Shown piece after piece: positions 3,681-56,319 of a stretch of 64,000 nucleotides of DNA (positions are counted from its first letter, which is position 1; each line of letters opens with the position of its first letter). A model generated the notes under the pieces. It searched no databases, was not told where the DNA came from, and worked only from the letters and a program-made list of their open reading frames with translations. Where the stretch lies: positions 69,790,788 through 69,854,787 of the forward strand of contig CM120640.1 in NCBI GenBank assembly GCA_051362555.1. Direction: 5' to 3'. The stretch comes from Lingula anatina. Lineage: Eukaryota; Animalia; Brachiopoda. The translations under genes were made by a program, and so were the position numbers.

Positions 3681-5647
3681 TTATGTACAGACACAGATGT
3701 GTCTGTACATATTGCCATCACCTGCGTCTGTCGTCGCCGTCGCCGTCGCCGATCATGTCGCCGTCGCCGTCGCCGTGCACTTTCAGCGTTAACACCATAA
3801 GTGGAAGACAGTTTTACTTTTTGGCTTTATATTTACAGAGCTGACTAATATTCATAAAACGCAGGTCAAGTTCGAAAATCAGCATGATCGGGCCATTATT
3901 GTAGAATTTATGCTGTTTTTTCACTTTTTAGCATATATGCAACACTGTTAACACATTTCAAGGAAAACCGATAGGCCTGTTGTCATGAAACTCACAGGAG
4001 TAATCAGTCTTACTAAAACGCAGATCAAGTTCGAAAATCGGCATGATCGGGCCACTATTTTAGTAGTTATGCTGTTTTTTCACTTTTCAGCATATATGCA
4101 ACACTGTTAACACATTTCAAGGAAAACCGATAGACCTGTTGTCATGAAACTCACAGGAGTAATCAATCTTACTAAAACGCAGGTCAAGTTCGAAAATCGG
4201 CATGATCGGGCCACCATTTTACTAGTTATGCTGTTTTTTACACTTTTCAGCATATATGCAACACTGTAAACACAATATAAGAAAAACAGATGGGCCAATT
4301 GTCATGAAAGTCACAGGAGTGGTCAATTTTACTAAAATGCAGGTTGAGTTCGTAAATCAGCATAATCGTGCCATTATTTTAGAAGGTATGCTGTTTTTTC
4401 ACATTTCCTCAGATTCAATTTTCAGGCATGTTAACAGTCTCATTATTAAACTAATAAGATACGTGAAAGTGTTTGTTTGACATTTCCTGCATCTTTACAA
4501 CATTGTTAGTTGATTTTGTAAAAATGATGGTAAACATGTTATCGTGTATTGTGTAATAAAGTTTCAAAAATGGAAATAAACTCATATCATTGCAATTTGT
4601 CAGATTCAATCATTCACTATGTTCAGAATCTCAGAATGGAAGAAATTGGACATTTAACACTGCTCTGTTGATACTTTTCTCATCTCATCAATTTTCTTAG
4701 TTGATCATGTAAAAATGGCAGTAAACTGTTAATTTTGTTTTATGTTAAAAATTGTTAAAAATGGGGAAAAAAACATTTCAGAACAGTGCTGTCTTGTTTA
4801 CATTTTGGCATTTTCAAGTTGTGACTTTGAAGTTCCATGGGCCTGAAGACCTTTGCTAGTCACATTTTCTGAATATCCATGATACTAATATTTTATTATT
4901 AAAAATTGATGGTCATTATGCTGTTAAACATTATGTAACATTGCATCAAAATTTGAAAAAAAAACTATTTTGGGCACTGCTCCCATGATTACCTTTTAAG
5001 AAAAACCATGTCACTTACTGTTCTCAAACTTACAGGAAAGAAACATGGGACTAAAATACAGCTTCAGTAGGCAATGCAATCTGCCAGATAAAAAACAGTT
5101 TTTTTTTTGTGAAAATTTAATTTTTCACATATTGGCATTTTCAAGGTGTGACTTTGAAGTTCCACAGGCTTGAAGACCCAGGCTAGTCACATTTTCTGAA
5201 AATCCATGATACATATATTTTGTTATTAAAAATTGATTGTCATTATGCTGTTAACCATTATGTAATATTGCATCAGAATAGAAGAAAACACAATTTTGGG
5301 TGCTGCTGCCATGATGACCATTATGGGAAAACCATGTTACTTATGATTGCCAAACTTTCAAAAAAGAAATACAGGACTGAAATGCAGCCTGAGTTGGAAA
5401 AGCAGTCTAATTGACTTCTTTTTCTGGAAGTTTTACATTTTCAAAGTGTGAACTTGAACTCCCATGGGCCTGAAGCTTTATGCTTGTTTCACATTTTACT
5501 TACATTGGTATTACCTGTTGAGCATAATTAAAATTTGATGTTGAATTTGCAGTTTAACATAATGTACTTTTGCATCAGAATTGACAGTAGCCTATTTTGT
5601 TATTTCCTGCTTTTTGTCTGTACATTTGACAGCTTTGCTGCCTTGTT
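3681..5647 (+). mobile_element. Non-autonomous Helentron-associated element (HINE/DINE-1-like), family A
   Basis: T-run, 5' hairpin atgtacagaca-caga-tgtgtctgtacat, (gtcgcc)n microsatellite, about 159-bp internal tandem units, 3' subTIR tgtctgtacat + small hairpin + cttgtt; no TSD. Confidence 0.75.
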
Positions 5648-15700: not shown

Positions 15701-18700
15701 TTTAGCATTTCAATTAACAGTTTTTTCCTTTTCTTCCCTCTATTTGTCATTGTATTTTATTCATCGTCTTTTATGACTCTTGGCTTTAATTTTGTCATCA
15801 TACTTTCATGAGAGAGTTTTTATTAACTTATGTATACATTCCTTAACATTAACCCAGCAGGTGTTTGGTTTATGATTGTGTAATATTTGCATTTTTGATA
15901 CTTTGTAATATTGTAATATCCCATTTGATTTTAAGTTGATATAAAAGTTATTTTGCACCCTGTAGCGTATTCCCCACTAATCTTCTGTTTGTTCCAACTT
16001 GAAAAGTAAAATAATCAAATCTAGCATGGCTTTAAAGGTGTGAAATAAAAACTCTTAGATACAGACTGCAATACACTGTATACACAGTTACTAGATATGA
16101 TTCTATTTTTAATTCATTTTTATTTTGATTTAATTTTTATAACTGTTTATAGTGGTTATAGCACACTAAGTAGCTAGCTGTTATGTTTCTAGCCTCCTCC
16201 CCCTGGTCCTGGTGCCCCGCCTACTGACAGTGCTGCTATGGTGACTGTAGGAGATACTAGTGGGCGGGAACCACACAAGACACACCCACAAAGACACTCC
16301 CCTCTGCTTCAGGAGATGCACTATATGTATAAATTTGACAAGGTACATTGATGACTGGTCACTTGTCACATGTCATGTGCTTTTTTATTTCCATTTCCCC
16401 CCACTTAATTTGGATGCATGATATTCAATATGGAGGAGAGTTTTTGGCAAATTCTCTGCCCTTATTTACTGAATTAATATATGAAGTTTTTGAAGTTTCC
16501 TAAAAAGGGAATAGAGACTGTGGTAACATATTCCCTAACAAGAAACTCGTTGTGAACAAAATCTTAAGCACAATATTGCAAGTATATTTTTATTACTTTA
16601 TTTGTTGCAATTATCTTTCTGCTTCTAATTTATCAGCATTCAGTTCAAAGATGTTGTCCATTAAAAAGAGTGACACCATTACTGCCCTTTGTCTTTTAAT
16701 GAGCTTACCAATGTTTACCAGGAAAAACTACTGAAAGACAAGGCCCGTATGCAGCAGAAGCAGAACTCTCCTGACAAGGAGGTAGAAAATGGTGCCAGTG
16801 CCAGCAAGCCTAAGTTGAAGAACAGCGGCCAAAAAGAAGGTTCTCCTGTGAAATCTGAAGTCCAGCAACAGAAAGTGGACAGTAAGAAAGGTAGGGCATT
16901 TTTGATGAAAAAAAGAATTTATAAATATATTTGGCAGAATTATTGGTAATTGATCAGTGTAAATAAATTAATACAAATTTATTAGTTTATTGAAGTGGAA
17001 TGTTTTTTTCCAGGAAAGAGAAAAAATGATGAAGATGATGGCGGATTCCTTGAGGCAGCTTCATCCAGGTCGGAGCGCCGTGTCAGTCCTCAGAGAAGTC
17101 TGGACAACAATGAGGCATTCCTCATCAAAACCCCAGGGTACAATACCCCGGGGCCCAATGGGCTGGAGATCATCTCAGAGTCCGGCTCCAACAGTATTAG
17201 TTACAAATCCCAAGTCCCAGTGAAGTCCGATGCTCCTATCCCAGCTGACAAGTATGCCCGCTACAAGCAGCAAGTGAAGAATGTGATCTTAAACCGGCTG
17301 GAGTTCAGCTCAGATACTGGGTATCTGTACCAGAAACAGAAGACGCGCTATGATGGCAGGAGAGGCACTAGGAGCACCAAGGACTACGACTCTGATACAG
17401 GCTACAGAAGTGACTATGCCCTGTACAGACCCAAGCTCCACCAGCAACAACAACCCAGACCTTTGACAGTGGGCAGCTTTGCCAGTGACTGGGAAATGAG
17501 AGCCAAAATTCAACAGAGTGCCACACAGGAAGGCTACACCAGTGACTCAGAGGGTTTACTACAGAGAGGAAAACTAGATTATGACCACCCCCTGGGTCGA
17601 CCAGGGCAGCTGAAGTACCCTGCCCTAAGCCTACCAGAGAACATGCACAATGCCAACCCAGGGAGCAGTTTTACCATGCAGCAGCAGCAGCAACAGCATC
17701 AACCCTCCCCAGCCTGGAGTTACACCACCACAACCAACATCACCCCCAGCAGTGTGCCGTATGCCAGACGGACCCTGATCCGTAATGATGAGCTGTATGA
17801 CAGCCAGCAGACACCTGGCACAGGTGGGCCGAGGAAGGACACTGACAGTACCCCCACTGTGCTGTCCAGGTCAGCTCATAACCTGTACGGAGACACCGCC
17901 ACCCATCAGACACGTATTGAGGTGAAGCCTAACAAGGATGACTGGAGGACAGAGCTGTTTTCTGTGCTGGAGAGGAAGAGGCAGGAGGCAGCTAGTGGCA
18001 AGAGAGAAGGGCAGCCAGGACCAGGGAAACCACCAGAGCAGGTAGTATATCTGGCTCTTCTTGAATCTGTTGAAGTAATAATATTTTAAAATTTTTTTCA
18101 TGGATGTCAAGTTGTTATGAGAACAACAATATATGAAAATGTCCAAAAATTACTATTGGAAAGTATTTTTATGTGAAGGCACAATGTGTCTGTACATAAA
18201 GTCATTACATGAGTCTGATGTCAACATCAGCATTGCCTTGCACTTTTCACCATTAAATCAATTTTATGGAAAACGTTCTGATTTCATTTTCTTAATGGAG
18301 TGATTTATGAGTCTAAAGTACAGGTCAGGTATAAAAAGAAGTTTTATGGCATTATTTTTGTTGAAGTTATGCAGTTTTTTTGTTGAAGTTTTCATATTTC
18401 TTGTATTGGCATTTAATGTGTATTTATAAAATCTAATGAGCTTGGACCCCAATATTATTTACATTTTCAGAATGTCATTGTTACCTGTCATTATTAAAAA
18501 TTGGCGGTTATTATGCTGTTAATTATTATGTGATATTGCATCAAAATTGCCAAAAGATTTATTAGGCATTAGCATCATTTTCTGCTTTATATGTATGTAC
18601 ATTTGGAAGCTTTGCTATTTTGTATACTACATTATTGAAATATGACAGAAGAGTGCATGATGTTCAGTTTCTTAGCATTTCAAATAATGTCATTTTTCCA

Positions 18701-21700
18701 AGTATTGGAATATTTTCACTTTTCCATCCACTTGGGTCACAACCAGATCTCCATCCTGGTTGATGGTACATCCCCATGGTTTATATAGTCCATCAGCTTG
18801 GGTTGCTATGTACTGGATGAACTTCCCATCTGGGGATACAAGGTGTATGCAGTGGTTATCGCGATCAGTGACCAGTATGTTGTCATAGGCATCAACGCAG
18901 ACACCAGGAGGTGGACTTAACTTATCAGGTCCTGTGTACTGATACAGTGGGTCACCAGATGGGGTTAGGATGTGAAGTTTGTTTGGTGATATATCATTGA
19001 CAACAAGGCACCCATTCCTCACACTAGTGGGCTGGATTTGGTCTTAAAGTGCAATTTAAGTTCACAAGTGATCTTACACGATCTTAAACATTACAGCAGT
19101 AGTCTTAAAATGGACTGAATCTGCTTTTAAGATCAAAAATGATCTAACATCTACTTAAGTGGTCAAGCAGTTTCCTCCCCTCACAATGGGGGATACATCC
19201 CCTCACAATATAGGACACCTCTGCTCAAAATAGGAGAATGTGTAAGGGGAGACAACTTAATTGGCTGTTAGACCAGAAATAGTCTTACTCATGGTTTAAG
19301 ATTATGTAAGACTATTTGTGAACTTAAATTGCACTTTAAGACCAAATCAAGCCCACTAGTGTCATATATGCCACTTGATATGGATTACTGAACAACTGCT
19401 CCCCATCTTTGTCCTTTATCACACCAGTTAAAGTTATTTGCCCTTTTATATCAATACTGATAATGCTCACAGGTTTTTCTTTATAACCCTGTGCCACAGC
19501 AATTTTAGTGCAGCTCTTATTGAGAGCCACACCATATGGGTTGTTGACATCTACAATTTGCTGTACTTCCCACTGTGGTGACAGAATGAACAGTTTGTTA
19601 TTGCCTGAACCAGATAGAACCAACCTTCCATCAGGGAAGTGACAGATCCCTACTGGAAATTTCAGCTGTGTGTCTGAGACACTTGTAATCTCTTGCTTTG
19701 ATGTACCATCTGAACTAAAAACCTTGACCTTGTTATCCCTGTCATGTATAGTAACATATTCCCTGTTTGGACTCACTGAAATGTCCACTGGCCTCTCACA
19801 GCCAGTGTAAAACTCCAGCATACATTCAGCCTTTGGTTTGATCTTGGGCAAAGCTGGTTGTCTAGATATCTGCACATTCCCCAGGCCAGCCCCACTGGAT
19901 ATCTCTTGGTCCACATCTGTGTTGGTGGTGAGTGTGAGTTTTAGTTCCTCTGGAATATCATCCACAGCTGAAGTGGACTGTAGCTCATCTAGTCTCTGTC
20001 CAAGTTGGTGTTGTAACATGAGGACATCTATGGGAGCACCATGCTGAAGTATGTTTTTTAGTACATCTGTTGTGCTTTTGATAGAGGAGCAAGTGGCACT
20101 GCAGTTTTTGCGTGAAATTTGTAAATTATTTCTGTGAGAGCTGGTGGTTTGATGAAGCTCCTGTACTAAGGTTTTCTCTCGTTGATTAACCAGTTGACGT
20201 AGATGATTTGCACGAGCTTTGATCTTCTGCTGAACAAAGCTTTCATTTTCTTGGAGGGTTGCCAATATTTCATCAATCTTAGCTATTGTTTTCTCACCTG
20301 TTTCAAATTTTTTCTCCATGCCACAGAATTTGGTCAGAAGTTTTGGCTTTACCATCTTTGCAGCTTTTTCAAGGGTGATAATTTTGTGACCATCATGGTG
20401 TAGAATTCTGCAGTCACGACAAATGCTGACATTGCAGTCTGAACAAAAGTATCGTATCATCTCACCTTTGTGCTCTGGGCAGATAATCTTTTGCTGCTCT
20501 TGGATTTCTTTTTCATACTCACTGCTGTGAAGTTGTTGAAAAGTCAGCACCTTGTGGTCTTTAGTGAACTTGGTACCACAGTGAAATGGAGAACACTTCT
20601 CACATAGGTAGTCATGGCATGTGATGCATTTTGAAGTAGCCACTGTTTCTGTTTGGGACACCAAAGCACAAGAGCTGCACTTTTTCGTATGTGTTAACTG
20701 AAGTACAGTGTCCTGCAAGCTTTCAATGAAGAAATTGTGAGTGAAGCCCTCAAGGCCATCTTTAGGTACTTCAGTTTCTCTCTGACACACAGGACATGGT
20801 AATTTACTTCCTGGTGTTAAATCAGAAATATAAGTCTTCAGACAACCCTTACAAAATGTATGCCTACATGGTAAATCTGTTGGGTCCTTATACTCCTCAA
20901 GACACAAAGAACAGCTCACAAAGTAGTTGACAATTTCAGTTCTTAAACTTTCTGCTTGTGGACTTTCAGTTACACCCTTGAGGTCTGCAGTAGCCATTTT
21001 CCTTTTTGATTCAGTCTCCAGTTGTTGTCCTGCGCAGATGTCTGTTAGTTCACCTGATTTGACCTAGTTCTTTTCTATAAGTTACCTGTATAGGGATTTG
21101 GGTCAGCATTTTTTCTGACCTTAACTGTGTTCATGTTATTGATTTTACATTAAAACTGCCACTGAACATGATGGGAATTTGTATTTATTATGAAAATATT
21201 TTGTCAAGTTTTTTTGTCCTGTGAATGAAGGAGCTTTAGTATGAAATGCTGGTTAAGCTACAGGTGTTGTTTATATGTTTATGTAGGGAGACAGTCAGAG
21301 GGTGTGTGTGTAGTAAGAGAAGTCAACTATGTTCAGTGATATATTGTGTAAGCACTGGTAAATCTACAGATAGTTTGGAGGTATATGGTGTATTTGTCTT
21401 ATGTAGGGAGACAGTCAGTGTGTGTGTGTGTGTAGTAAGAGAAGTCAACTGTGTTCAGTGATATATTGTATAAGCACTGGTAAATCTACAGATAGTGTGG
21501 AGGTATATGGTGTATGTATACTGTATATGTATATCTCTAAGGTTACTTCTCATATGGGGCAAGATTTTTAGAATTTTATGACAAACATTTCATTTTTCTT
21601 TTTTTTATTTCATTTTTATTTCATTTTTCTTATTTCATTTCTTGTATTTTTACTTCTGAGTATTTCATCATTTCAAAGTCATTTCAATTATCTCCCCTCA

Positions 21701-24700
21701 CACATTCCTCTTTAATTCCTGAAGCCCTAGTTACACACCCTGAATGTCCATGTTACCAGGAGTGCATAATGGATTTTTGATGGTAATTATGCCTTTGAGC
21801 ATTATGTAATATTGCAACAAAATAGTCCCCCCCCCAAAAAAAAAAATATATATTGTTCGATGGCATCATTTTTTTCTGCATTGTGTCTGTACATTTGACA
21901 GCTTTGCTGCTTTGTTTTGTGTTTCCTTTGCACAATTCTCACATAAACCATCATCTGTATTCATTTCTAATCTCCATCTAGGCTCCTCAGGACAGAAGTT
22001 TCAGCACCCACACCAGTGATGACGAGGTGTTTGCCCCTCCCCCCTACAGACCTGCACCCCCTTACTCTCCTAAGTCTGCCAGGAGAGAGCAGACACCTGC
22101 CAGCATGCTGGGGAACAGGTCAGGCAGGGATCTGGTGCCAAGGGACAGCAACTCTAACTCTCCACAGGTGGGATCAGGAGATGGCAGTGGGGTTATCAGC
22201 AACAACAAACGTGGTGGAGGTGGGGTGTATCCTCCAAACTACGGTCCCAGGCCGGACCACAAGCCTAGGATATTCAAACCTGCAGGAGATGGTCAAGAAA
22301 GTGACCAGCGGTCAAGGCAGGTGATCAGGTTGAATGGTCCACCCCCACAGACACTGCCTCACAAGATAGACATGTCCAATCTAAGCAGGACAGGCCTGGT
22401 AGGGGGTGGCCACCAACAGCAGCATAAGATGGACTCTCCTAATCTGAACAGGTCCAGGCCTGATATGAGTGACCCTGTCTCTGCCTCCCTACAGAGGCCT
22501 GGTGCTGGGGCAGCTTATCCACCACATGTACAGCAGAGACTAGGGGGTAATAGGGGGGAACAGAGGCCTCTGGGAAGTACTAGTTCTGATGGCTCAGACA
22601 AAGATAGGACTAGAAGGTTTGTTGATGCTGATGGTGGCATGGCAACAAATAATTTCCAGTCTTCCTCACCAATGAATAGACATAGTACTGAAGTGAGGCC
22701 TGGTGTGGCTTACGGTCCACCACCACCATCATCATCAAGTACTATGCATAATGACTCCTCGGCTAACATGCACAGGGTTAGTGTCTTGAACAGAGCCAGT
22801 CAGAACATGATGGACAGACCATCACCAAATGTACACAACATGAGACTCTCTCCACACCACGACTCCCTCCCACATTCCACGGGACCTCCTTATGAACATG
22901 ATCACCAGAGGGAGCTGGGGTACGACTCTCAGAGCAATCAGAGCTCAGACTTAAGTGCAAAGAACACGTCTCTGGATCATACCAGTGAGAGTGAGCCCCC
23001 TCCCCCGGAGAGTCACCATGAGATTAGGAACTATGAAGATGTGGCCAGGTTTAAGCAACAGCAGCAGCCAGACCCTCTGTCACAAGTGTCCAGTTCTACG
23101 GACAGTGGCTATGGACACGGACATCACATTTATGAGAAGGTTAATGATCTGAGAATGGGAGGTGAGTTGTTACATTTTGGATCTGAAAATTGCTTTTAAG
23201 TACATTGTAACATTGTAACTTACCTTTTATGTATATTAACACAGGTACAGAGAGAGGATCAGAGTGACTTTGAGGTTTACGAAAAAAAAATCTCTCTTTA
23301 ATCATTTAGTCTTAAAAACAACTTAAGGCAGAGCAACAATTAAGTTTGACATTTAAAAGAGAATGTTCCTGTCATCTTCCAGGTTACCCTCCTAGTCACC
23401 TGCCTCCTCCCATGAGAGCCCCACCCTCCCCTCCAGGCCACCCCCAGCCCAGCCCCCTTACTGTCCACCCCCAGCCCAGCCCCCTTACCATCCACTCCCA
23501 TCCACCAGAACACAATCAGCTCCACAGGAACCCTCCAGATATCACCAGCCCTGTGGATGGACCTTATAATGGAATGGACCAAAACTACCCCACAAGGGGA
23601 CAGATTTACCCTGGTGGTCAGTATGACCCTAGGATGACCAATAACCTCAGGGACTTCAAGCCGGCCAGATCTTCCCCAGTAGCTCCTCTAATAAGAAACC
23701 ATCAGCCTCCCTTGCCACCCCAGCAAGGTGCCAGCAGGGGGAATCCGTACCCTGGTCCACCTAAGGAGCCAATCTATGTGTCCAGGAACCAGCTGTTCAG
23801 ACAGCACAATGATGTGGGGCCAGGCAGAGAGAATGGTCTTCCTGACCAGCAGCAGCCACAACAGAACCTGTATCTGGGGCAGAGCAAATATGAAGTGGTG
23901 GGTGCATGGGCTGAGATAGATGGGATCCTACTGTGGTAGAATAAAAAAGATACATGAAACAGATATTTTCATGGTTAATTGTACCACCAGCGTAGGCGCT
24001 GGCGGTACCCATGGTTTTAGTCCCGACCCGTATGTTCCGCCGGCTCCTGCGGCTCCGCGGCAAAGTCACCGTTACCACTTCTCCTCCTAGATGGTAAGGG
24101 CCCCCGTACCCATCTCTTGGATTTAGGTCACCTATAATCTCAACTCGTTCCATGTAAAATTTGGGCTTTGTCGGTATTGGGGTCTAGGTGTGGCACTCAT
24201 TGCAATGCACCCTTGTCTAAAAATGGCAAAATTAAAGGCTAATTATCTACCCTACGGAAGGAGTTATGGGAAAAATTTCTACAGACAGCTTTCCAAAAGT
24301 CATATGTGTAGATTTCAAATATGCCCTTGGATTTGACCTTTGACCTTTATTTCAAGGTCAAACGGGCCAAAATTTTCAAAAAAATGAAATTTTTTACGAA
24401 AAAAATTTTTTTTGCCATGTTATTCAGATACCACACAGACTTAACCAATAATATTATTGGAAAGTGTAACCCTTCGGGTCATCTTTCATCTCCGTGAATT
24501 TGGGGTCAATCGGTGCATTTTCACGGGAGTAGCGGCCATAAAGTACCTAAACTGAAAACTGTCTCTAATTTGGGAACCATTAATGCTAGAGACCCATTCT
24601 TTTTTGCATTTTGTAGAGCATGTAAAGCCCAACACTGGAAGTGGTCTACGTTTTTTTGTATTCCATACGGTTTTCAAGTTACGCTGTATCAAAAAGTACA

Positions 24701-29881: not shown

Positions 29882-30369
29882 CTGGAGATCATCTCAGAGT
29901 CTGGCTCCAACAGTTTTAGTTACAAACCCCAAGTCCCAGTGAAGTCCGATGCTCCCGTCCTGGCTGACAAGTACGCCCGCTACAAACAGCAAGTGAAGAA
30001 TGTGATCTTATACCGGCTGGAGTTCAGCTCAGATACTGGGTATCTGTACCAGAAGCAGAAGACGCGCTATGATGGCAGGAGAGGACACTAGGAGCACCAA
30101 GGACTACGACTCTGATACAGGCTACAGGAGTGACTATGCCCTGTACAGACCCAAGTTCCACCAGCAACAACAACCCAGACCTTTGATAGTGGGCAGCTTT
30201 GCCAGTGACTGGGAAATGAGAGCCAAAATTCAACAGAGTGCCACACAGGAAGGCTACACCAGTGACTCAGCGGGTTTACTACAGAGAGGAAAACTAGATT
30301 ATGACCACCCCCTGGGTCGCCCAGGGCAGCTGAAGTACCCCGCCCTAAGCCTACCAGAGAACATGCACA
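29882..30369 (+). pseudogene. LAP exon 16 remnant, unit 2
   Basis: +1 frameshift near 30085 (agaggcact to agaggacact); about 450 bp deleted including the splice donor. Confidence 0.88.
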
Positions 30370-33293
30370 GCAGCATGGATGTCATGCACAGCAGCATGGA
30401 TGTCAAGTTGTTATAAGAATGACAACATACCTAATGTGTAAAAATCAAGACTCCAAAGATTACTATTGGAAAGCATTTTTATGTACAGGCACAGTGTGTC
30501 TGAACATACAGTTATCACCTGTGTCTGTTGTCAGCATCAGCGTCTCCTTGCACTCTTCACCATAAAGGAAATAATGGAAATTGACTTATCTTCAACCTTA
30601 GTGGAGTGATTTATGGCACTAATTTTAAAGTATAGGTCTGGTATGAAAAGAAGTTTTTTTTTTTTTTTTGCATTATTTTTCTTGAAGTTATTGTTCTGAC
30701 CGTTGAATATTGTCCTCAGACAGCTTACCATACAACACAACACGTCTCGTTGAAATGTAATAGTGGTAAACTTTAATAAGAAACAAGGCAGCAAAGCTGT
30801 CAAATGTACAGACAAAAAACAGAAAATAAAGATGCAAAATAGGTCTTTTGTCAATTTTGATGCAATAATAAATAATGCTTATAATAACACAGTCAGTTAA
30901 CACTGATTTTTAATCATGCACAACAGGTAACATGGTCAATAACAGGAGCAGATCCAGAGATATTTTCTGACAGTATTCCAAAGTATCTTTATTGATCCAT
31001 CCTCCACTTTTGATGGTCTTCCAACAGAAAAAAATTGATACCAGTCAATGTAAACTTTAAAATCTGACCGTCATCTGAAAGACCCAGAAGACGGCCTCAA
31101 TCCACCCCTGCAATAAGATTACAGTTTCTGGACCATGAGAGTTCAAATTCACATAATGAAATTTGAAAAATGTTGACAGTGCATAAAATAATATTACATA
31201 TTGTTTAAAAACATAAAAACCTATGCAACTGCTTATGTGGAAATACAGAAAATCTGAAGAGCTTCAGGTGGATGGGAGTTGAAAATGCCAGTGTTTAGAA
31301 AAAAATTAAAAAGAAAACACAACAAAAAAAATTCCAATAAAGCTGCTATTCAAACTTTTAATCTTGCTGTATTAACATGATATGAATAATCCCAATGTGT
31401 TTGAGGATAATAAGACACTGTTATTCATCTATAGCATTAATGTTGGCATTACACAAATTTTTTTCTTCTGTAAACTTATTTGCAATATTAAACAACATTT
31501 ACCTGCATAATTATCAGCAATTCCTAATTATGTGACACAGTTAAGAGAGCTTAACCTATAGGACTTGAATGGGAAATCTCAATGTGTGTTTAATGTAATC
31601 TTATTTAATGGGCACTTGAAAATTAATTAGGCAAGTAATTTTATAGCTCTGAATATAGCTAGTGATTATCCCAAGGGACAATTACCACCATCCATAAACA
31701 GTAGCCCCATATAGCACTCTATATAGAGCTGCATTGCTTCCAAAACAGAAAACAATCACACTGATTTCCAACACAAGCTACACTTCAGTCCTATGAAACT
31801 TTTCTAGTAAGTTAGAATATCATAAGTAAAATGATTTTTCCTTAATGGTCATCCCAGCAGCAATGTCCAAAAAAGGGTTTTTTCATCTTTTATGCAATTT
31901 AACATAATGCATAACAGCACAATGGCCATCAATTTTTAATAATTAAGTAAATGTATCATAGCTATTCAAAAGATGTGACAAGCAATGGTATTCAAGCCAA
32001 TGGAAGTTCAAAGACTAAGTCACACCTTGAAAATGTCCATATGTGAAAATTTTAATTGTAACAAAAAACTATATAATTTCCAAGAAAGTTAACCGATATA
32101 ACAGGTTTTCCAACTGAAGCTATAATTTAGTGCTATGCTACATTTCTGTAAGTTTGAGAAGAGTAAGAGTACTCTTTGAGAAGAGTAAGTGACTTAAATG
32201 GTCACTATGGAGGCATTGTCTAAAATGGGGTTGTCTTCAATTTTGATGCAATATTACATAATGCTTAACAGCATAATGACCATCAAATTTTAATAATAAA
32301 ATAAAAGTATCAAGGATATTCAGAAAATTTGATATGGAAAGGTCGTCAGGGCCATGGAAGTTCAAAGTCACAACTTCAAAATGCCAAAATGTACGCAAGA
32401 AATAACTGTACTGAAATGAATTTCTTTCCACATTCAACACTTTTTTATGTACAGACACAGATGTGTCTGTACATATAGCCGTCACCTGCGTCTGTCGTCG
32501 CCGTTGCCGTTGCCGTGCACTTTTACCGTAAACATGATAAGTGGAAAACGGTTTTACGTTTTGACTTGAAACTTACAGAACTGATGAATATTCAAAATAT
32601 TCAGGTCAAGTTTGAAAATCAGCATGATCGGACCATTTTTAGGGAAGTTATGCTGTTTTTTCACTTTTTTCAGCATATATGCAACACCGTAAACACGATA
32701 AGTGGAAAACGGTTTTACGTTTTGACTTGAAACTTACAGAACTGATGAATATTCATAATATTCAGGTCAAGTTCGAAAATCAGCATGATCGGGCCATTTT
32801 TAGGGAAGTTATGCTGTTTTTTCACTTTTTTCAGCATATATGCAACACCGTAAACACGATAAGTGGAAAACCGTTTTACCTTTTGGTTTGAAACTTACAG
32901 AACTGATGAATTTGTATAAAACGCAGGTCAAGTTCGAAAATCAGCATGATTGGGTCATTTTTAGGGAAGTTATGCTTTTTTTTTCACATTTTCTCTGATT
33001 CAATTCTTAGGCATGTTAATAGTCTCATTATTGAACTAATAAGATATGTAAAAGTGTTTTTTTGACATTTCCTGCATCTTTACAACATTGTTAGTTGATT
33101 ATGTAAAAATGATGGTAAACTTGTTATCGTGTATTGTGTAATGAAGTGTCAAAAATGGAAATAAACCCATTTCAGAAAAGTGCTGTCTTGTTTACATTTT
33201 GGCATTTTCAAGATGTGACTTTGAAGTTCCATGGGCCTGAAGACCTTTGCTAGTCACATTTTCTGAATATCCATGATACTAATATTTTATTAT

Positions 33294-35967
33294 TACAAGG
33301 CAGCAAAGCTGTCAAATGTACAGACAAAAACAGGAAATAACTATGCACAAAATAGGCTACTGTCAATTCTGATGCAAAAATACATTATATTAAACTGCAA
33401 ATTCAACATCAAATTTTAATTATCCTCAACAGGTAATACCGATGTAATTAAAATATGTGACAAGTTTACACTTTGAAAATGTATAACTTCCAGAAAAAGA
33501 AGTTCCTTAGACTGCTTTTCCAACTCAGACTGCATTTTAGTCCTGTATTTCTTTTTTGAAAGTTTGGCAATCATAAGTAATATGGTTTTCCCATAATGGT
33601 CATCATGGCAGCAGCACCCAAAATTGTGTTTTCTTCTATTCTGATGCAATATTACATAATGGTTAACAGCATAATAACTCAATTTTAATAATAAAATATA
33701 CGTATCATGGATTTTCAGAAAATGTGACTAGCATGGGTCTTCAAGCCCGTGGAACTTCAAAGTCACACCTTGAAAATGCCAATATGTGAAAAATTAAATT
33801 TTCACAAAATAACTGTTTAACTGTCAGCAAGAATTACCAAACAGACTGTATTTCATACTGAAGCTGTATTTTAGTCCCATGTTTCTTTCCTGTAAGTTTG
33901 AGAACAGTAAATGACATGGTTTTTCTTAAATGGTCATCATGGGAGCAGTGCCCAAAATAGTTTTTTTTTTCAAATTTTGATGCAATATTACATAATGTTT
34001 AACAGCATAATGACCATCAACTTTAATAATAAAATATTAGTATTATGGATATTCAGAAAATGTGACTAGCAAAGGTCTTCAGGCCCATGGAACTTCAAAG
34101 TCACAACTTGAAAATGCCAAAATGTAAACGAGACAGCACTGTTCTGAAATGTTTTTTTTTTCCATTTTTAACAATTTTTAACATAAAACAAAATTATCAG
34201 TTTTCTGCCGTTTTTATATGATAAACTAAGAAAATTGATGAGATGGGAAAAATATCAACAGAGCAGTGTTAAATGTCCAATCTCTTCCATTCTGAGATTC
34301 TGAACATAGTGAATGATTGAATCTGACAAACTGCAATGATATGAGTTTATTTCCATTTTTGAAACTTTATTACACAATACACGATAACAAGTTTACCATC
34401 ATTTTTACATAATCAACTAATAATGTTGTAAAATTGCAGGAAATGCCAAACAAACACTTTTACCTATCTTATTAGTTCAATAATGAAACTGTTTACATGC
34501 CTAAGAATTAAATCTGAGGAAATGTGAAAAAACTGCATTTCTTTAAAATAATGGCCCGATTATGCTGATTTTTTAACTCAACCTGCGTTTTAGCAGGAAT
34601 GACAACTCCTGTGAGTTTAATGACAATTGGCCTATCTGTTTTTCTTATATTGTGTTTACAGTGTTGCATATATGCTGAAAAGTGAAAAAAAAAGCATAAC
34701 TACTAAAATAGTGGCTCGATCATGCCGATTTTCGAACTTGACCTGCATTTTATGAATATTCATCAGCTCTGTAAATATACAGCCAAAAAGTAAAACTGCC
34801 TTCCACTTATCGTGTTTACAATGAAAGTGCATGGCGCCGGCGACAGCGACAGTGACGGCAACGACGGCGACGACAGATGCAGGTGATGGCAATATGTACA
34901 GACACATCTGTACATATTAACTGTACTGTTTGAGAACAGTAAGTGACATGGTTTTTCTTATATGGTCATCATGGGAGCAGTGCCCAAAATAGGTTTTTTT
35001 CAAATTTTGATGCAATATTACATAATGTTTAACAGCATAATGATCATCAATTTTTAATAATAAAATATTAGTATCATGGACAAATAGTAAACGTGACTAA
35101 CAAAGGTTTTTAGGCCGATGGAACTTCAAAGTCACACCTTCAAAATGCCAAAATGTAAACAAGACTGCACTGTTCTGAAATGGGTTTATTTCCATTTTTA
35201 ACACTTTTTTAACATAAAACAAAATTAATAGGTTACTGCCATTTTTATAAGATCAACTAAGAAAATTGATGAGATGTGAAAAATATCAATAGAACAGTGT
35301 TAAATGTCCAATTTCTTCCATTCTGAGATTCTGAACATAGTGAATGATTGAATCTGACAAACTGCAATGATATGAGTTTATTTCCATTTTTGACACTTTA
35401 TTACACAATACACGATAACAAGTTTACCATCATTTTTACATAATCAACTAACAATGTTGTAAAGATGCAGGAAATGTCAAACAAACACTTTTACGTATCT
35501 TATTACTTAAATAATAAGGCTATTAACATGCCTAAGAATTAAATCTGAGGAAATCTGAGGAAATGTGAAAAACAGCATAACTTCTAAAATAATGCCCCGA
35601 TTATGCTGATTTTTGAACTTGACCTGCGTTTTAGTAAGATTGATTATTCCTGTGAGTGTCATGACAACAGGCCTAACGGTTTTCCTTAAAATGTGTTTAC
35701 AAGGTTGCATATATGCTGAAAAGTGAAAAAACAGCATAACTTCTACAATAATGGCCCGATCATGCTGATTTTCGAACTTGACCTGCGTTTTATGAATATT
35801 CATCAGCTCTGTAAATATAAAGCCAAAAAGTAAAACTGCCTTCCACTTATCGTGTTTACAAGGAAAGTGCACGGCGACGGCATCGGCATCGCCATCGGCA
35901 TCGGCGACGGCGACGACAGACGCAGGTGATGGCAATATGTACAGACACATCTGTGTCTGTACATAAA
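33294..35967 (-). mobile_element. HINE-A, inner copies (head-to-tail pair 33294-34916 and about 34920-35967)
   Basis: One 3' end at 33294 and two 5' ends (about 34893-34915 and 35937-35967); very similar to the reverse complement of 3681-5647. Confidence 0.75.
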
Positions 35968-37641
35968 AAACTGATGGTCATTATGCTGTTAAACATTATG
36001 TAATATTGCATCAAAATTTGAAGAAACCCCTTTTTTGGGCACTGCTCCCATGATGACCATTTAAGGAAAATCATGTCACTTACTGTTCTCAAACTTACAG
36101 GAAAGAAACATGGGACTAAAATACAGCTTCAGTAGGCAATGCAGTCTGTTTGGTAATTTTTTCTGGCAGTTAAACAGTTTTTTGTGAAAATTTAATTTTT
36201 CACATATTGGCATTTTCAAGGTGTGACTTTGAAGTTCTATGATCCTGAAGACCTTTGCTTGTCACATTTTCTGAATGTCCATGTTACTAATATTCTATTA
36301 TTAAAAATTGATGGTCATTATGCTGTTAAACATTATGTAATGTTACATTAAAATTTGAAGAAACCCCTATTTTGGGCACTGCTCCCATGATGAGCACTTA
36401 AGGAAAATCATGTCACTTACTGTTCTCAAACTTACAGGAAAGAAACATGGGACTAAAATACAGCTTCAGTAGGAAATGTAGTCTGTTTGATAAATTTTTC
36501 TGACAGTTAAACAGTTTTTTTGTGAAAATTTCATTTTTCACATATTGGCATTTTCAAGGTGTGACTTAGAACCTCCACGGGCTTGAAGACCCATGCTAGT
36601 CACATTTTCTTAAAATACATGATGTGTATGTATTATTATTCAAAATTGATGGTCATTATGCTGTTAAGCATTATGTTATGTTGCATCAAAATAGAAGAAA
36701 ACACAATTTTTGGTGCTGCTGCCATGATGACCATTATGGGAAAACCGTGTTACTTATGACTGTCAAACTTTCAAAAAAGAAACACAGGACTAAAATGCAG
36801 CCCGAGTTGGAAAAGCAGTCTAATTGGCTTCTTTTTCTGGAAGTTATACATTTTAGTGAAAAATTCATTATTATCGTGTTGGCATATTCATTGTGGGACT
36901 CGGAGCTCCCATGGACATGAAGCCGAATAGTAATCAAATTTTCTAAATGCCCATGCTATTTATAGTCAATAATCAAAAATTGGTGATAATTATTATATAA
37001 TTTATTATGTAATGTTACATCAAAATTGACAAAAATCTTTTTGCACTGCTACTGCAAACATTATGAAAAGAAAACTGTGTTACTTAGTATTATTTTTAAC
37101 TTACAAGTATGATTTTTAGGATTGGCATGCAGTTCAAATTAGAAAGCCAGCTCAATTGGATTATCTTTTATCATTGTATTCATGCAATTTTGTGTGAAAT
37201 TTTCATTTTTCTCATTCTGGCACTTTCAAAGTATAAACTTGAACTCTGATGGGCCTGAAGCCTTATGCTTTTACTTTCGTTGGTGTTACCTGTTGTGCAT
37301 AATTAAAATTTGATGTTGACTGTGCAGTTAAACATAATGTATTATTGCATCAGAATTGGTAGTCTCCTATTTTGTGCATTATTGTTATGTGCTTTTCTTA
37401 AGATGTGACTTATGGGCCTGAAAGATCTTTGAGAGGGTCAGTCTGTAAATTTCCCTTGGGTATCACTTAGCTAAGTTCAGAGTTATAAAGTCATTAATAG
37501 GCCATTAAATGAGATTACATAAAGCACACTTGTTGATATTTCCCTGTAAACTCCCAAAGGTTAAGCTCTCTGCTAGATTAATAATAAGTAAGCAGTGATA
37601 ATTATGCAGGTAAATTTTGTTTAATATTGCAAATAAGTTTT

Positions 37642-37644
<3 letters not shown>

Positions 37645-37696
<52 letters not shown>
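37645..37696. repeat. (TA)n microsatellite
   Basis: Direct reading. Confidence 0.95.
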
Positions 37697-37699
<3 letters not shown>

Positions 37700-37741
37700 A
37701 AAAAGATTAAAAGTTTGAATGGCAGCATCATTGGAATTACA

Positions 37742-37964
37742 TTTACCTTTGCTAAGGAGGTTATGTTTACACCCCTGTTTGTCTGTCATCAACATAACTC
37801 AAAAAGTTACGGACCTATTTTGATGAAATTTTCAGGAACTGTCAGAAGTGGGCAAGGAGGACAATGATTAGTTTTTGGTGGTGGTCCCAATCAATAATCA
37901 ATCAATAATAATCAACAATTGCTGTCTTGGCAGAGGTCTGCGCTCTTGGAGTGCTTTTCTAGTT
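37742..37964 (+). mobile_element. Short HINE-type element family C
   Basis: ttacctttgctaaggaggttatgttt...ttggcagaggtctgcgctc..gagtgc..ctagtt; absent from the homologous inverted segment at about 31320-31345. Confidence 0.65.
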
Positions 37965-40900
37965 TTGTTATGTTTTCCTTTTTAATTTTTTCTCAAACAC
38001 TGGCATTTGTGACTTTTAACTCTCATCTTCCTGAGGCTCTGCACATTTTCTATATTTCCACATAAGCAGTTGTATTGTTTTTCATGTCTTTAAACATTAT
38101 TTAATATTATTTTATGCACTGTCATCATTTTTCAAATATTGAGACTTTCATCATGAGAATTTGAACTCTCATGGTCCTGAAACTGTAATCTTACTGAAGG
38201 GGTGGATTGAGACCATCTTCTGGGTCTTCCGGAAGATGGTCAGGTTATTAAGTTTATATTGACTGGTATCTATTTTTTTTCTGTTGGAAGACCATAAAAA
38301 TGGAGGATCAACATAGATACTTTGGAATACTGTCAGAAAATATCTCTGGGTTCGCTCCTGTTATTGACCATGGTACCTGTTGTGCATGATTAAAATTCAG
38401 TGTTGACTGACAGTGCTATTATAAGCATTATTTATTATTGCATCAAAATTGACAAAATGACCTATTTTGCATCTTTATTTTCTGTTTTTTGTCTGTACAT
38501 TTGACAGCTTTGCTGCCTTGTTTACATATATCAGAATAATCAATTTACTGTCATTTTTAAATGATCAACTAAGAAAGTTGTTGACATAGGAAGAATATCA
38601 ATAGAACAATTTTAAATGTCCAATTTGTTCCATTCTGAGATTCTGAACATGGTGAATGATTGAATCTGACAAACTGTAAAGATATGAGTTTATTTCCATT
38701 TTTGACACTTTATTACACAATGCACAATAACAGGTTTACCATCATTTTTATATAATCAACTAACAATATTGTTAAGATGCAGAAAATGTCAAAAGAACAC
38801 CTTTACATTAGTAATTAGTTCACAAATGAGATTGTTAACATGCCTAAGAATTAAATCCGAGGAAAAAAGACTTCTATACAAAAAAAGGCACAATTTCACC
38901 AAAACTGAACCGATCAAGCTTATTTTCGAACCTCATCTGTATTTTAGTAAATCTGATCACCCCTGTGAATTTCAAGACGATTGGCTGATTGATTTTCCTT
39001 GAAATGTGTTATCAGTGTTGCACATATGCTGAAATAGTGAAAAAACAGCATAACTTCCATAAAAATGGCCTGCGTATTATGAACATTCATCATTTCAGTA
39101 ACTTATAAGCCAAAAAGTAAAACGATTTTTCGCTTATCGTGTTATCGGTGTTGCATTTATGCTGAAAAAAATGAAAAAAATAGCATAACTTCCACAAATA
39201 TGGCCCGATCATGCTGATTTTCGAACTTGACCTGCGTATTAAGAATATTCATTAGTTCTGTAAGTTTCAATCCAAAAGGTAAAACGGTTTTTCACTTATC
39301 GTGTTATCGGTGTTGCATTTATGCTGAAAAAAATGAAAAAATAGCATAACTTCCACAAATATGGCCCGATCATGCTGATTTTCAAATTTGACCTGCGTAT
39401 TATAGATATTCATCAGTTTTGTAAGTTTCAAGCCAAAAATTAAAATGGTTTTCCACTTATCGTGTTATCGGTGCTGCATATATGCTGAAAAATGTGAAAA
39501 GTGACCTACAAGTGACCTGATCATGCTGATTTTCGAACTTGACCTGCGTATTATAAATATTTATCAATTCTGTAAGTTTCAAGCTGAAATGAAAAACAGT
39601 TTTCCACTTATCGTGTTATCGGTAAAAGTGCACGGCGACGACGGCGACGACAGACGCAGGTGATGGCTATATGTACAGACACATCTGTGTCTGTACATAA
39701 AAATAACTAAAAAATAAATGTACAAAGACAACAACAAAGTAAAGTTAACAGAACTACATGTATTTTGTCTAAAACTGAAGGCAAATTACGGTAACACAGT
39801 TGTGATGATATTAAGAATGCTCTATAAAACTTAACGGTAATTACAGTAATAAAAGTAAGCAATTTAAAGAACGTTTTTTTGTACTAAAGCTTAAGTGCAA
39901 TACCATTTCACAATACAACGTATATCTATCTGTTCTAAATTTAAGAGCATTTACAGTACTAGTTAAACAAATGTAAATTCTTACAAGAAGTGGTGTCACC
40001 GGCTAAAACGTGCGAAGCAGTACTGAAAACGTGCTACAGATTCACAATGACCTGAAAACAGGAACCAACAATAAGTTCGCTGACACACTAAACCCTAAAC
40101 GATATCACTTGCATCACGATGCTAATACAGTAAGTTTGCGCTAAGCTAAATAGCCATTCTACGATCGAATATAGCTTTTACAGAGGGTTTATACAATGCA
40201 ATTCACCAGGTAAATCATAGTGACACATTGCGGAAACGAAAACAAACAGGAAATCACCCTAAGTAAATCTGTATCATTACAAGATACTGAACGCTAACAA
40301 AGATCGTCGCGGCAGCAATTTAAGGTATATTTACGAACTAAATCTTATAACTAAATATTAAAACAACCTTAAAACTCACTATAAACTCACTCTAACTTAT
40401 CAACAAAATAAAATGCTTACTTTAACTCCTACGGTTGACGGGAGTTGCGTCTTCCTACTGTAGAACTAGAACGGCGTGTATCTTCTGAGTATGGTGTGAG
40501 TGAATGAAGAACGTTCTAAGTGTAACTAACTAATATCGGGGTTTCTGGCCAATAATATCCAGCCAACACCCCTCACCAGATCGATCACGCCACTTATCCC
40601 CGTAAGATGGGGGTTACTGACCAATGGGGTCCGGCCGACACCCCTCACCAGATTGAACACGCCACTACCCGTCAAACAATAAGCTAACCCCAATACAGTG
40701 AGAGCGCTAGGAGGCTAGCGAAGTGAAAGGGCAACAAATTTACGGAGAGGGGTCTACAAATCTATACATAGTGTATTTAACATTCTCCTGGAAATAATCA
40801 TGAAGCTATTAAATAATATAAAAGAAATTAAAAAGTAGTTTCAACACAGTTATGGAGTTTATTGTTGAAGTTTTCATATTTCACATATTGGCATTTTTAA

Positions 40901-41149
40901 TGTGTAATTTTGAAATCTAATTGGCCCTAAACCCAATATTATTTACATTTTCTGAATGCCATTGTTACCTGTAGCACATTTTTAAAAATTGGTGGTGATT
41001 ATGCTGTTAATTATTTTGTAATATTGCATCAAAATTGACAAAAAATATATAACATGTATTTTTGGAAGCTTTGCTATCTTGTGTGGTACATTATTTGAAA
41101 TATGACAGGAAAGCGCATATTGTTCAGTTTCATAGCATTTTAAAACATG

Positions 41150-43120
41150 TCATTTTTCCAAGTATTGGAATACTTTCACTTTCCCATTATCTTGAGCCAC
41201 AATCAGATCTCCGTCCTGGTTGATGGTACATGCCCATGGTTCATATAGTCCATGATCAGCTTTGGTTGCTATGTACTGGATGAACTTCCCATCTGGGGAT
41301 ACAAGGTGTATGCAGTGGTTATCACAGTCTGTGGCCATTATGTTGTCATATGCATCAACACAGACACCACCTGGTCGACCTAACTTGTTATCAGGTCCTG
41401 TGTACTGATACAGTGGGTCACCAGATGGATTTAGGATGTGAAGTTTCTTTTGTGATATTTCACTGACAATAAGGCAGTCATTGCTCATATATGCCACTTT
41501 ATATGGTATATCGAACAACTGCTTCCCATCTTTGTTCTTTATCACATCAGTTAAAGTTATTTTCCCTTTAATATCAATACTGAACACACTCACAGACTTT
41601 TCTTTATAACCCTGTGCCACAGCAATCTTCGTGCAGCTGTTATTGAGAGCAACACCACATGGGAAGTTGACATCTACAGTTTGCTGCACTTCCCTCTGTG
41701 GTGACAGGATGAACAGTTTGTTATTGTTGGCACCAGATAGAACCATCCTTCCATCAGGGAAGTGACAGATCGCTGCTGGCCATTCCAACTGTGTGTCTGA
41801 GACACTTGTGATCTCTTGCTTTGAAGTCCCATCTGAACTAAAAACCTTGACCTTGTTATTATTGTCATGTGCAGTAACATACTCCATGTTTGGACTCACT
41901 GTAATGCCCACCGGTTTCGAACAGCCAGTGTCAAACTCCAGCATACATTCAGCTTGTGGTTTGATCTTGGGCAAAGCTGGCTGTCTCGATATCTGCACAT
42001 TCCCCAGGCCAGCCCCACTGGATATCTCTTGGTCCACTTCTGTGTTGGTGGTGAGTGTGAGTTTTAGTTCCTCTGGAACAACATCCACAGCTGAACTGGA
42101 CTGTAGCTCATCTAGTCTCTGTCCAAGTTGATGTTGTAACATGAGGACATCTATTAGAGCACCCCGCTGAAGGATGTTCTTTACTACATCTGTTGTAGTG
42201 TTGATAGAGGAGCAAGTGGCACTGCAGTTTTTGCGGGAAATTTGTAAATTATTTCTGTGAGTGCTGGTGGTTTGATGAAGCTCCTGTAGTAAGGTATTCT
42301 CTCGTTGATCTACCAGTTGACGTAGATGAGCTGCACGAGCTTTGATCTTCTGCTGAACAAAGCTTTCATTTTCTTGGAGAGTTGCCAATATTTCATCAAT
42401 TTTAGCTATTGTTTTCTCTCCCTTTTCAATTTTTTTCTCCATGCCACAGTATTTGGTCAGAAGTTGTGGCTTTACCATTTCTGCAGCTTTTTCAAGAGAG
42501 ATAAGTTTGTGGCCATCATGGTGTAGATCTTTGCAGTCACGACAAATGGGGACATTGCAGTCTGAACAAAAGTATCGTATCATCTCACCTTTGTGCTCTG
42601 GGCAGATAATTTTCTGCTGCTCTTTGATCTCTCTTTGGTGCTCACTGCTGTGAAGTTGTTGAAAAGTCAGCACCTTGTGGTCTTTAGTGAACTTGGTACC
42701 ACAGTGAAATGGAGAACACCTCTCACATAGGTAGTCATGGCATGTGATGCATTTTGAAGTAGCCACTGTTTCTGTTTGGGACACCAAAGCACAAGAGCTG
42801 CACTTTTTTTTATGTGTTGACTGAAGTATAGTGTCTTGTAAGCTTTCAATAAAGAAATTGTGAGTAAGGCCCTCAAGTCCATCTTTAGGAACTTCAGTTT
42901 CTTTCTGACACACGGGACATCGTAATTTACTTCCTGGTGTTAAATCAGAAATATAAGTCTTCAGACAACCCTTACAAAATGTATGCCTACATGGTAAATC
43001 TGTTGGGTCCTTATACTCCTCAAGGCACAAAGAACAGCTCACAAAGTAGTTAACTATTTCATTTCTTAAACTTTCTGCTTGCGGACTTTCAGTTACATCT
43101 TTAGAGTTTGCGGTCGCCAT
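41150..43120 (-). CDS. TRIM-NHL E3 ubiquitin ligase copy 2 (TRIM2/3/56-like architecture), 656 aa, single coding exon
   Basis: C3HC4 [21 protein letters not shown]; B-box1 [17 protein letters not shown]; B-box2 CPEH..FCSDC..ICRDC..HHDGH; coiled coil; NHL repeats (PVGITVSP, PAAICHFPDG, PCGVALN, PYKVAY, PGGVCVD, PWACTIN). Confidence 0.92.
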   Translation of the reverse strand: MATANSKDVTESPQAESLRNEIVNYFVSCSLCLEEYKDPTDLPCRHTFCKGCLKTYISDLTPGSKLRCPVCQKETEVPKDGLEGLTHNFFIESLQDTILQSTHKKKCSSCALVSQTETVATSKCITCHDYLCERCSPFHCGTKFTKDHKVLTFQQLHSSEHQREIKEQQKIICPEHKGEMIRYFCSDCNVPICRDCKDLHHDGHKLISLEKAAEMVKPQLLTKYCGMEKKIEKGEKTIAKIDEILATLQENESFVQQKIKARAAHLRQLVDQRENTLLQELHQTTSTHRNNLQISRKNCSATCSSINTTTDVVKNILQRGALIDVLMLQHQLGQRLDELQSSSAVDVVPEELKLTLTTNTEVDQEISSGAGLGNVQISRQPALPKIKPQAECMLEFDTGCSKPVGITVSPNMEYVTAHDNNNKVKVFSSDGTSKQEITSVSDTQLEWPAAICHFPDGRMVLSGANNNKLFILSPQREVQQTVDVNFPCGVALNNSCTKIAVAQGYKEKSVSVFSIDIKGKITLTDVIKNKDGKQLFDIPYKVAYMSNDCLIVSEISQKKLHILNPSGDPLYQYTGPDNKLGRPGGVCVDAYDNIMATDCDNHCIHLVSPDGKFIQYIATKADHGLYEPWACTINQDGDLIVAQDNGKVKVFQYLEK

Positions 43121-46662: not shown

Positions 46663-46893
46663 GTGGGTGCATGGACTGAGATAGATGGGATCCTACTGTG
46701 GTAGAATAAAAAAGATACATGAAACAGATTTTCAACGTTAATTTTTAAACACTATTAATGGATTTGATGTTATCCTGTGGAGGTGAATATTTTTTTTCTT
46801 AACTGTTATTTTTTGGTTGTAGAGATATGAACTTTGAACTATATTTTTAAATTTTATACCTCTGTATTATCCACATGTTCTGGTGTGTTTCAG

Positions 46894-54201: not shown

Positions 54202-55080
54202 CTGGAGATCATCTCAAAGTCCCGCTCCAACAGTAAAAGTTACAAACCCCAAGTCCCAGCGAAGTCCGATGCTCTCGTCCTGGCTGACAAGTACGCCCAC
54301 TACAAGCAGCAAGTGAAGAATGTGTTCTTAAACCAGCTGGAGTTCAGCTCAGATACTGGGTATCTGTACCAGAAGCATAAGATGTGCTATGATGGCAGGA
54401 GAGGCACTAGGAGCACCAAGGACTACGACTCCGGTACAGGCTACAGAAGTGACTATGCCCTGTACAGACCCAAGCTCCACCAGCAACAACAACCCAGACC
54501 TTTGACGGTAGGCAACTTAGCCAGCGACTGGGAAATGAGAGCCAAAATTCAACAAAGTGACACACAGGAAGGCTATACCAGTGACTCAGAAGGTTTACTA
54601 CAGAGAGGAAAACTGGATTATGACCACCCCCTGGGTCGCCCAGGGCAGCTGAAGTACCCCGCCCTAAGCCTACCAGAGAACATGCACAATGCCAACCCAG
54701 GGAGCAGTTTTACCATGCAGCAGCAGCAGCAGCAGCATCAACCCTCCCCAGCCTGGAGTTACACCACCACAACCAACATCACCCCCAGCAGTGTGCCATA
54801 TGCCAGACGGACTCTGATCCGTAATGATGAGCTGTATGACAGCCAGCAGACACCTGGCACAGGTGGGCCGAGGAAGGACACTGACAGTACCCCCACTGTG
54901 CTGTCCAGGTCAGCTCATAGCCTGTATGGATACACAGCCACCCATCAGACACGCATTGAGGTGAAGCCTAACAAGGATGACTGGAGGACAGAGCTGTTTA
55001 CTGTGCTGGAGAGGAAGAGGCAGGAGGCAGCGAGTGCCAAGAGTGAAGGACAGCCAGGACCAGGGAAACCACCAGAGCAG
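54202..55080 (+). pseudogene. 5'-truncated LAP exon 16 copy, unit 3 (frame still open, donor intact)
   Basis: ORF 54193..55095 matches exon 16 from LEIIS onward; donor cag|gtacta at 55081. Confidence 0.75.

Positions 55081-56269: not shown

Positions 56270-56319
<50 letters not shown>

Follow-up and report, generated by a model that had tools for sequence, protein, structure and literature searches.

How did an intronless TRIM gene come to lie within an intron of another gene, enclosed by remnants of HINE-type transposable elements? The question is raised by a 64,000-nucleotide stretch of the Lingula anatina genome (contig CM120640.1, positions 69,790,788 to 69,854,787; here called the window), in which a TRIM gene occupies intron 16 of a gene encoding LRR and PDZ domains (Table 1). 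An initial annotation had interpreted the gene as cargo of a composite HINE, captured by reading through a weak 3' terminator, and had proposed this as a possible general dispersal route for the TRIM family. The structure does resemble a composite; the test for a second copy, however, failed on its left side. We lean, tentatively and with less than even confidence, towards a DNA-level TRIM copy that already bore a HINE 3' tip having been pasted, through repair guided by homology, into a HINE resident in the intron, rather than delivered as a rolling-circle cassette. The weights that we attach to this and the competing readings are our own judgement and not computed values.

The window sequence matches L. 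anatina, and the 22 best protein matches of the TRIM all belong to this species. The host gene is P0042 (LOC106174883; 97% match), a protein of 1653 aa with LRR and PDZ domains identified by Pfam, whose coding blocks occupy 6728-27718 (tblastn). Its protein alignment stops at 18044 and restarts at 21982, in agreement with the splice sites (GT at 18042, AG at 21980-81) and with the intron boundaries as first annotated, 18042-21981. With 3940 bp, intron 16 is the longest among 19 host introns measured (range 188-3940 bp; four of 19 below 250 bp). The TRIM gene of intron 16 (unit 1) is antisense to the host and runs from 20997 to 18690. RING, B-box and NHL domains were found by Pfam in the TRIMs of two tandem copies of this region, units 2 and 3, and together with a coiled coil, assigned from its position rather than computed, they make the gene a member of the TRIM-NHL proteins. 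It shares RING, B-box and NHL with the TRIM-NHL ubiquitin ligases (TRIM2/3/56/71-like by database names), but belongs to a Lingula-specific intronless expansion with no filamin match, the best matches outside Lingula being 20-29% identical. The database allele of the unit-1 TRIM, P0001 (XP_013412103), is intact, with 654 aa and a 98.7% match over 545 aa. Since it lies on a scaffold of the same length as the host isoforms XP_013412092-102, the nesting is also present in the database assembly. In a poly(A) RNA run, of which about 6% was read, reads fell on host exons, and only two TRIM-type reads were seen, on the host strand and with 10 differences.

The initial annotation had placed a decayed 5' end and a decayed 3' end to the left of the TRIM. 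Both are there, not as two isolated ends but as parts of one whole, short HINE at 18171-18623, which aligns with young copies over most of its length. Its 5' end consists of a T-run (18166-18170) followed by a hairpin of subterminal inverted repeat (subTIR) and inverted repeat at 18171-18197, where 3 of 26 arm bases differ from the young copy and the fold has a z of -2.6 (young copy, -5.6). Its 3' end, the inner end of the structure (~18592-18623), differs from the young end at 7 of 33 bases, and the stem-loop is broken here and dead in all three units. Within this HINE, at 18558-18563 and in unit 1 only, the TRIM strand carries an AATAAA, a candidate poly(A) signal.

On the right, the 3' end at 21916 proved to be as first described: the outer end, 21884-21916, differs from the young end at 1 of 33 bases, and no HINE 5' end was detected in the interval separating the right piece from the TRIM start (E<1e-3, five young copies as queries). 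Changes common to all three units, counted by eye, amount to 5 of 33 in the inner end, 1 of 26 in the 5' arms and none in the outer end; the inner end is the most decayed of the three, a difference that does not reach significance (Fisher p 0.09-0.21). Both pieces lie on the plus strand, so that an outer 5' end and an outer 3' end in one orientation surround host DNA, with T-runs at both outer junctions and, as had been noted, little intron outside them (129 + 65 = 194 bp). The right piece begins at ~21717, where it borders the weak remnant of a different repeat; the homologous position in the left HINE is ~18440. Among 18 repeat copies compared in the window, the left 3' part and the right piece do not pair as closest matches, and we rejected a direct duplication of one HINE on that ground. 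The whole layout recurs in unit 2 (30481..44687) and unit 3 (55222..61840), which, as the initial annotation recognised, are copies and not independent evidence.

What kind of element supplied these ends? The family is abundant: HINE accounts for 15.8% of the window with one young copy as query, seven matches to the 27-base 3' motif were counted compared with none in 100 shuffles, and the 13-base subTIR has 20 matches compared with 0.16 expected. SubTIRs of 11-15 bp are present at both ends, exact in young copies, decayed in the left HINE and near exact in the right piece, and the 5' inverted repeat stands beside the subTIR, accompanied by a GTCGCC microsatellite array and central 159-bp repeats. 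The 3' palindrome is weaker; a 4-bp stem folds in the young and outer ends no better than in shuffles (z ~0) and is broken in the inner ends. T-runs lie 5' of five of five elements and T lies 3' of three of five. In the available text on DINE-1/HINE non-autonomous Helentrons (PMC4067079) and the oyster Cg_HINE (PMC7492417), the same combination is described, namely a 5' subTIR with adjacent inverted repeat, a microsatellite, central tandem repeats, a 3' subTIR with short palindrome, T-rich sites and nesting; the Lingula family differs in its own subTIR and in the short, weak palindrome.

Judged by their sequence, the ends appear HINE-type, that is, non-autonomous HLE2. Within the HLE2 scheme (PMC11417382), assigning the family to Helentrons proper rather than to other HLE2 would take an autonomous partner. 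No RepHel-type reading frame occurred among the 12 window open reading frames (ORFs) of at least 150 aa, nine of which were domain-scanned; a genome-wide search for the partner was not made. In metagenome contigs, the HINE 5' hairpin had no match and none of 131 pattern matches was confirmed as a related locus. HINE-matching poly(A) RNA reads of run X12 (18470-18559) were strongly one-stranded, with ~430 running 5' to 3' along the element and 10 the other way, and stem from other HINE copies.

The TRIM family itself is dispersed, as the initial annotation had supposed. The close clade comprises 13 database proteins, 69-86% identical to the unit-2 protein, on 13 scaffolds with widely spaced accessions; the scaffolds were told apart by length alone, and split alleles may inflate the count. 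More distant TRIM clades include tandem neighbours. In a protein tree of 16 rows, with unit 1 represented by P0001, the window copies and P0009 form a terminal group (bootstrap 56 for the whole protein, 91 for NHL). A truncated host copy tying P0009 to a host duplicate was absent from the protein database, in which pseudogene copies are not annotated (two weak, unrelated matches among 5168 candidates). Two types of N-terminus and 5' flank (43090-43520, 61020-61220) occur in the family, one in units 1 and 2 with P0003 and P0046 and the other in unit 3 with most other paralogues; since these types do not follow the protein tree, the paralogues likely recombine.

If the TRIM had travelled as HINE cargo, other copies should carry the same ends. 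We aligned contigs from DNA runs at 80% likeness to 16600-24600 and, more finely, to 17960-18859, using the contig of the locus itself to orient minus-strand records. Copies near 80% likeness, a divergence that most paralogues show, may be missed; copy numbers can be gauged only roughly from summed contig depth, and the finer statements concern the 24 of 1184 pieces and the 10 joints listed. In X4 and X5 a single unbroken contig spans the locus from exon 16 into the TRIM. The bins of the left-HINE interior (18230-18289, 18410-18439) hold only this contig, at single-copy depth (88.9 in X4, 43.4 in X5). TRIM coding bins sum to ~20-50x in X4 and 17-54x in X5, bin 18650-18679 to 10x and 6x, bins 18590-18649 to 5x and 2.5-2.7x, and bin 18500-18529 to ~2,700 and ~3,300 times single-copy depth. 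Run X10, strongly diverged and seemingly holding several host units, served only as a control of sensitivity; its copies, ~90% alike, align across the left-HINE interior (17 differences in 184 in record 1), so copy detection works at that likeness.

Among the pieces listed for X4 and X5, six non-self contigs reach the TRIM 3' flank. Five depart short of the inner HINE end (one at 18678, two at 18661 and two at 18635) and continue for 35-658 further letters, none being joined to a HINE among the joints listed. The sixth, X4 record 10 (depth 168), runs from 18690 to 18598, inside the inner HINE end. In addition, one non-self contig of X5 (38.9) crosses 18619 and 18634, where X4 shows ~135 further depth at both positions. 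These tip-bearing contigs are unlikely to be units 2 or 3, since host exons 16-18 stand at ~1x in X4 and the end of exon 16 at 1x in X5. Thus the HINE tip beside the TRIM stop is common to a few paralogues, and the 5' half of the left HINE was detected with none. Within the same two runs and at the same likeness, no second copy of the full bracket was seen (older or deleted copies would be missed), nor was a further copy or donor with the same 5' partner at an unrelated site. In the alignment to 16600-24600, no empty-site joint occurred among the 15 of 250 joints listed, and full-depth contigs of X1 and X4 contain the insertion in intron 16. The general route proposed initially, with HINE ends bracketing the paralogues, is not borne out by these data; the HINE-type ends, their orientation and the dispersal of the family stand. 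A unique 5' half combined with a shared tip is the opposite of the usual outcome of composite formation, in which copies start at the 5' end and leave a donor behind, although donors can be lost.

The repair reading would account for this asymmetry as follows. A short HINE resident in a ~190-bp intron would have suffered a break, which would have been repaired from a TRIM locus elsewhere through the HINE 3' part that the two sites shared. Repair would have copied the tip, the TRIM and its 5' flank before rejoining the 3' remainder of the resident element, so that a single local element would account for both the outer 5' half and the outer 3' piece, with the inner end derived from the donor. 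Subsequent tandem duplication of the host 3' half would have multiplied the TRIM, while the intron kept gaining transposons. Such a history predicts outer ends that are nearly intact, an inner end of greater age, a right piece starting in mid-element and a unique 5' half. That the right piece starts at the homologue of ~18440, and that the left 3' part and the right piece are not closest matches, points to different parents, and the position of the window copies and P0009 at the tip of the tree makes the locus look like a recipient. The stronger decay of the inner end lends weak support; the T-runs at both outer junctions also count in favour, and an empty intron of 194 bp fits the range of host introns.

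Several points weigh against homology-guided pasting. The model was devised with the data already in view, the contrast in decay does not reach significance (p 0.09-0.21), and neither the donor locus nor the empty intron was read directly from the short contigs, of which 24 of 1184 pieces were listed. How far the shared HINE part extends is masked at 18470-18559, where HINE copies number in the thousands; most paralogues have diverged beyond the 80% likeness, so that their flanks fall outside the comparison; and on the right side, paralogue flanks were resolved only to bins of 267 bp, in which HINE copies swamp the signal. Finally, the tip-bearing paralogue contigs could descend from this locus.

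There is a precedent in Drosophila. According to the available part of PMC2211543, repeats lie at the breakpoints of 10 of 17 dispersed duplicates, including seven transposons, all DNAREP1 (DINE-1), and the edges were read as ectopic recombination or mobilisation of flanks. The Lingula locus is likewise a dispersed duplicate with HINE-type remnants at its edges; it differs in comprising a whole single-exon gene in a host intron, three HINE ends and later tandem amplification. Among the models of Helitron capture summarised in the accessible portion of PMC4289320, the initial annotation corresponds to read-through (RTM1), and pasting comes near the filler-DNA model, in which repair takes place inside the element, except that pasting invokes homology with a HINE tip at the donor and no later transposition.

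A possible though doubtful alternative is that the arrangement is coincidental, the TRIM having arrived by some other duplication, two HINEs having inserted independently and the right one having lost its 5' part. HINEs are very abundant, by depth and by coverage of the window, and cluster according to the part of PMC4067079 at hand; from the coordinates, three further nested HINEs entered the intron copy of unit 2 once it had been duplicated. Since the TRIM takes up most of the intron, any insertion to its left necessarily falls near the intron end; the two pieces are not close relatives, and the repeat remnant abutting the right piece is a plausible deletion edge. Nevertheless, this account requires chance for the same orientation, for the loss of the 5' part of the right element only and for the lesser decay of the outer ends, and the other end-bearing HINEs of the window read as complete nested elements. 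The junction of 3' flank and HINE tip is common to other loci, yet the tree places this locus at a tip. On this account, the tip-bearing paralogues would be later copies from this locus, made through DNA or through retroposition ending at the HINE AATAAA.

We consider it unlikely that the locus is a true composite, in which transposition of a HINE ran past its dead 3' terminator, captured the TRIM and stopped only at the 3' end of a second HINE, the composite then inserting into a T-run of intron 16. The near-intact outer ends, the inner stem-loop that is dead in all three units and the T-runs at both outer junctions are as this reading would have them, as are the inner tip common to some paralogues not linked to the host and the 13 close proteins on 13 scaffolds, whereas tandem neighbours occur in the outgroup clades. 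For bat Helitrons (HelibatN539), composite capture is documented in the available text of PMC4224331, and for HINEs it is proposed in that of PMC4067079. HelibatN539 and the Helitron-amplified bat retrogenes likewise place one element's 5' end and another's 3' end around host DNA, but exist in several copies with empty sites, whereas neither a second bracketed copy nor an empty site was found for the Lingula structure, whose ends are of HLE2 type. Moreover, transposition by copying would be expected to leave behind a donor or siblings that retain the left HINE in full, of which none was seen at 80% in X4 and X5; two close paralogue contigs, X5 records 19 and 20 (~89-90% alike), part from the locus at 18661, extend for another 658 and 241 letters and show no HINE joint among the 10 listed; and no autonomous partner was found among the window ORFs. 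A variant would hold the TRIM and the outer 3' end constant and let the 5' partner change. Its extension, that a Helentron composite carried an intact 2-kb TRIM-NHL gene and that the terminal TRIM clade spread as HINE cargo with changing 5' partners, seems to us improbable.

However the TRIM arrived, its amplification is plain: the host 3' half is repeated in tandem as units 2 and 3, each with an intact TRIM. Unit copy number is polymorphic, host exon depth being ~1x in X4 and ~2x in X1. The unit TRIM proteins are 83-87% alike, with dS of 0.17-0.25 and dN/dS of 0.36-0.41 (~0.6 in the NHL part). The host exon copies have lower dS values, 0.02-0.16, and the higher silent divergence of the TRIM copies suggests conversion or unequal crossing-over. 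Later insertions of ~10 kb split the left HINE of unit 2, whose outer end is at 44687; they comprise three mutually nested HINEs (39698 to 30783, enclosing 32447-38522, enclosing 35964 to 33295), with an unclassified 1.1-kb insert at ~39700-40847 beside them. The left HINE of unit 3 (outer end 61840) is split by a 3.3-kb element at 55585-58873 with 535-bp inverted ends (96%) and a paired-type helix-turn-helix frame at 56431-56928, likely a Tc1-like transposon. In unit 1, a 340-bp insert, which we take to be of CACTA type from its ends, interrupts the TRIM frame. It is a polymorphic knock-out of the unit-1 TRIM in this haplotype, given that the database allele is intact. Remnants of its family lie at ~44330-44500 and 61443-61586.

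Table 1. Coordinates of the features discussed, in positions of the window
Feature	Position	Strand	Details
Young complete HINE, reference copy	3683..5647	+	5' subTIR and inverted-repeat hairpin, GTCGCC microsatellite, 159-bp and ~330-bp internal repeats, 3' subTIR and short palindrome
Host exon 16 (LRR and PDZ gene P0042)	16719..18041	+	tblastn, Pfam; RNA reads on exon end
Host intron 16, GT-AG, 3940 bp	18042..21981	+	splice sites
Left HINE, whole, short (453 bp), decayed	18171..18623	+	5' hairpin 18171-18197; broken 3' subTIR and stem-loop ~18592-18623
TRIM 3' flank, likely untranslated region, 66 bp from stop to inner HINE end	18624..18689	-	
Unit-1 TRIM, intronless, interrupted in this haplotype	18690..20997	-	RING, B-box, coiled coil, NHL
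340-bp element, CACTA...TAGTG ends	19022..19361		long inverted ends, TCA target duplication; inside unit-1 TRIM frame
TRIM 5' flank	20998..21716	-	122-bp tandem pair 21272-21515; weak remnant of CACTA-ended element near 21658-21707
Right HINE piece, 3' ~200 bp only	21717..21916	+	near-intact subTIR and stem-loop 21884-21916, then T-run
Host exon 17	21982..23163	+	tblastn
Unit 2, tandem copy of host 3' half from mid exon 16	29882..53736	+	TRIM ORF intact 41150-43120 (-)
Unit 3, tandem copy	54202..64000	+	TRIM ORF intact 59103-61058 (-)

Other repeats of the region vary in abundance. At 21326, within the 122-bp pair of the TRIM 5' flank, summed depth is ~26,700 in X4, 23,700 in X10, 1,150 in X1 and 260 in X2, and the abundance of this repeat is strongly sample-dependent. 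Host introns contain 146-bp satellite-like arrays, at 24960-26397 in unit 1 (9.9 copies) and 48533-51498 in unit 2 (20.3 copies), preceded by a very high-copy repeat at ~23990-24600.

Literature linking TRIM genes and HINEs in Lingula was not found, and the word 'Helitron' is absent from the main text of two Lingula genome papers, whose supplementary repeat tables lay outside the search and may bear on the question. The Drosophila study, in the part available (PMC2211543), left open whether HINE/DINE-1 sequences at duplicate edges reflect rolling-circle capture or a substrate for recombination. Lingula offers a dozen or more dispersed paralogues, where capture and recombination can be told apart by their flanks. 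If the less probable cargo reading were true, a DINE-1-like element would have transduced whole genes of a fast-evolving ubiquitin-ligase family in an animal. As it stands, the locus is one more repeat-edged duplicate, and it clearly illustrates the amplification of a nested gene when the 3' half of its host is duplicated in tandem, here polymorphically.

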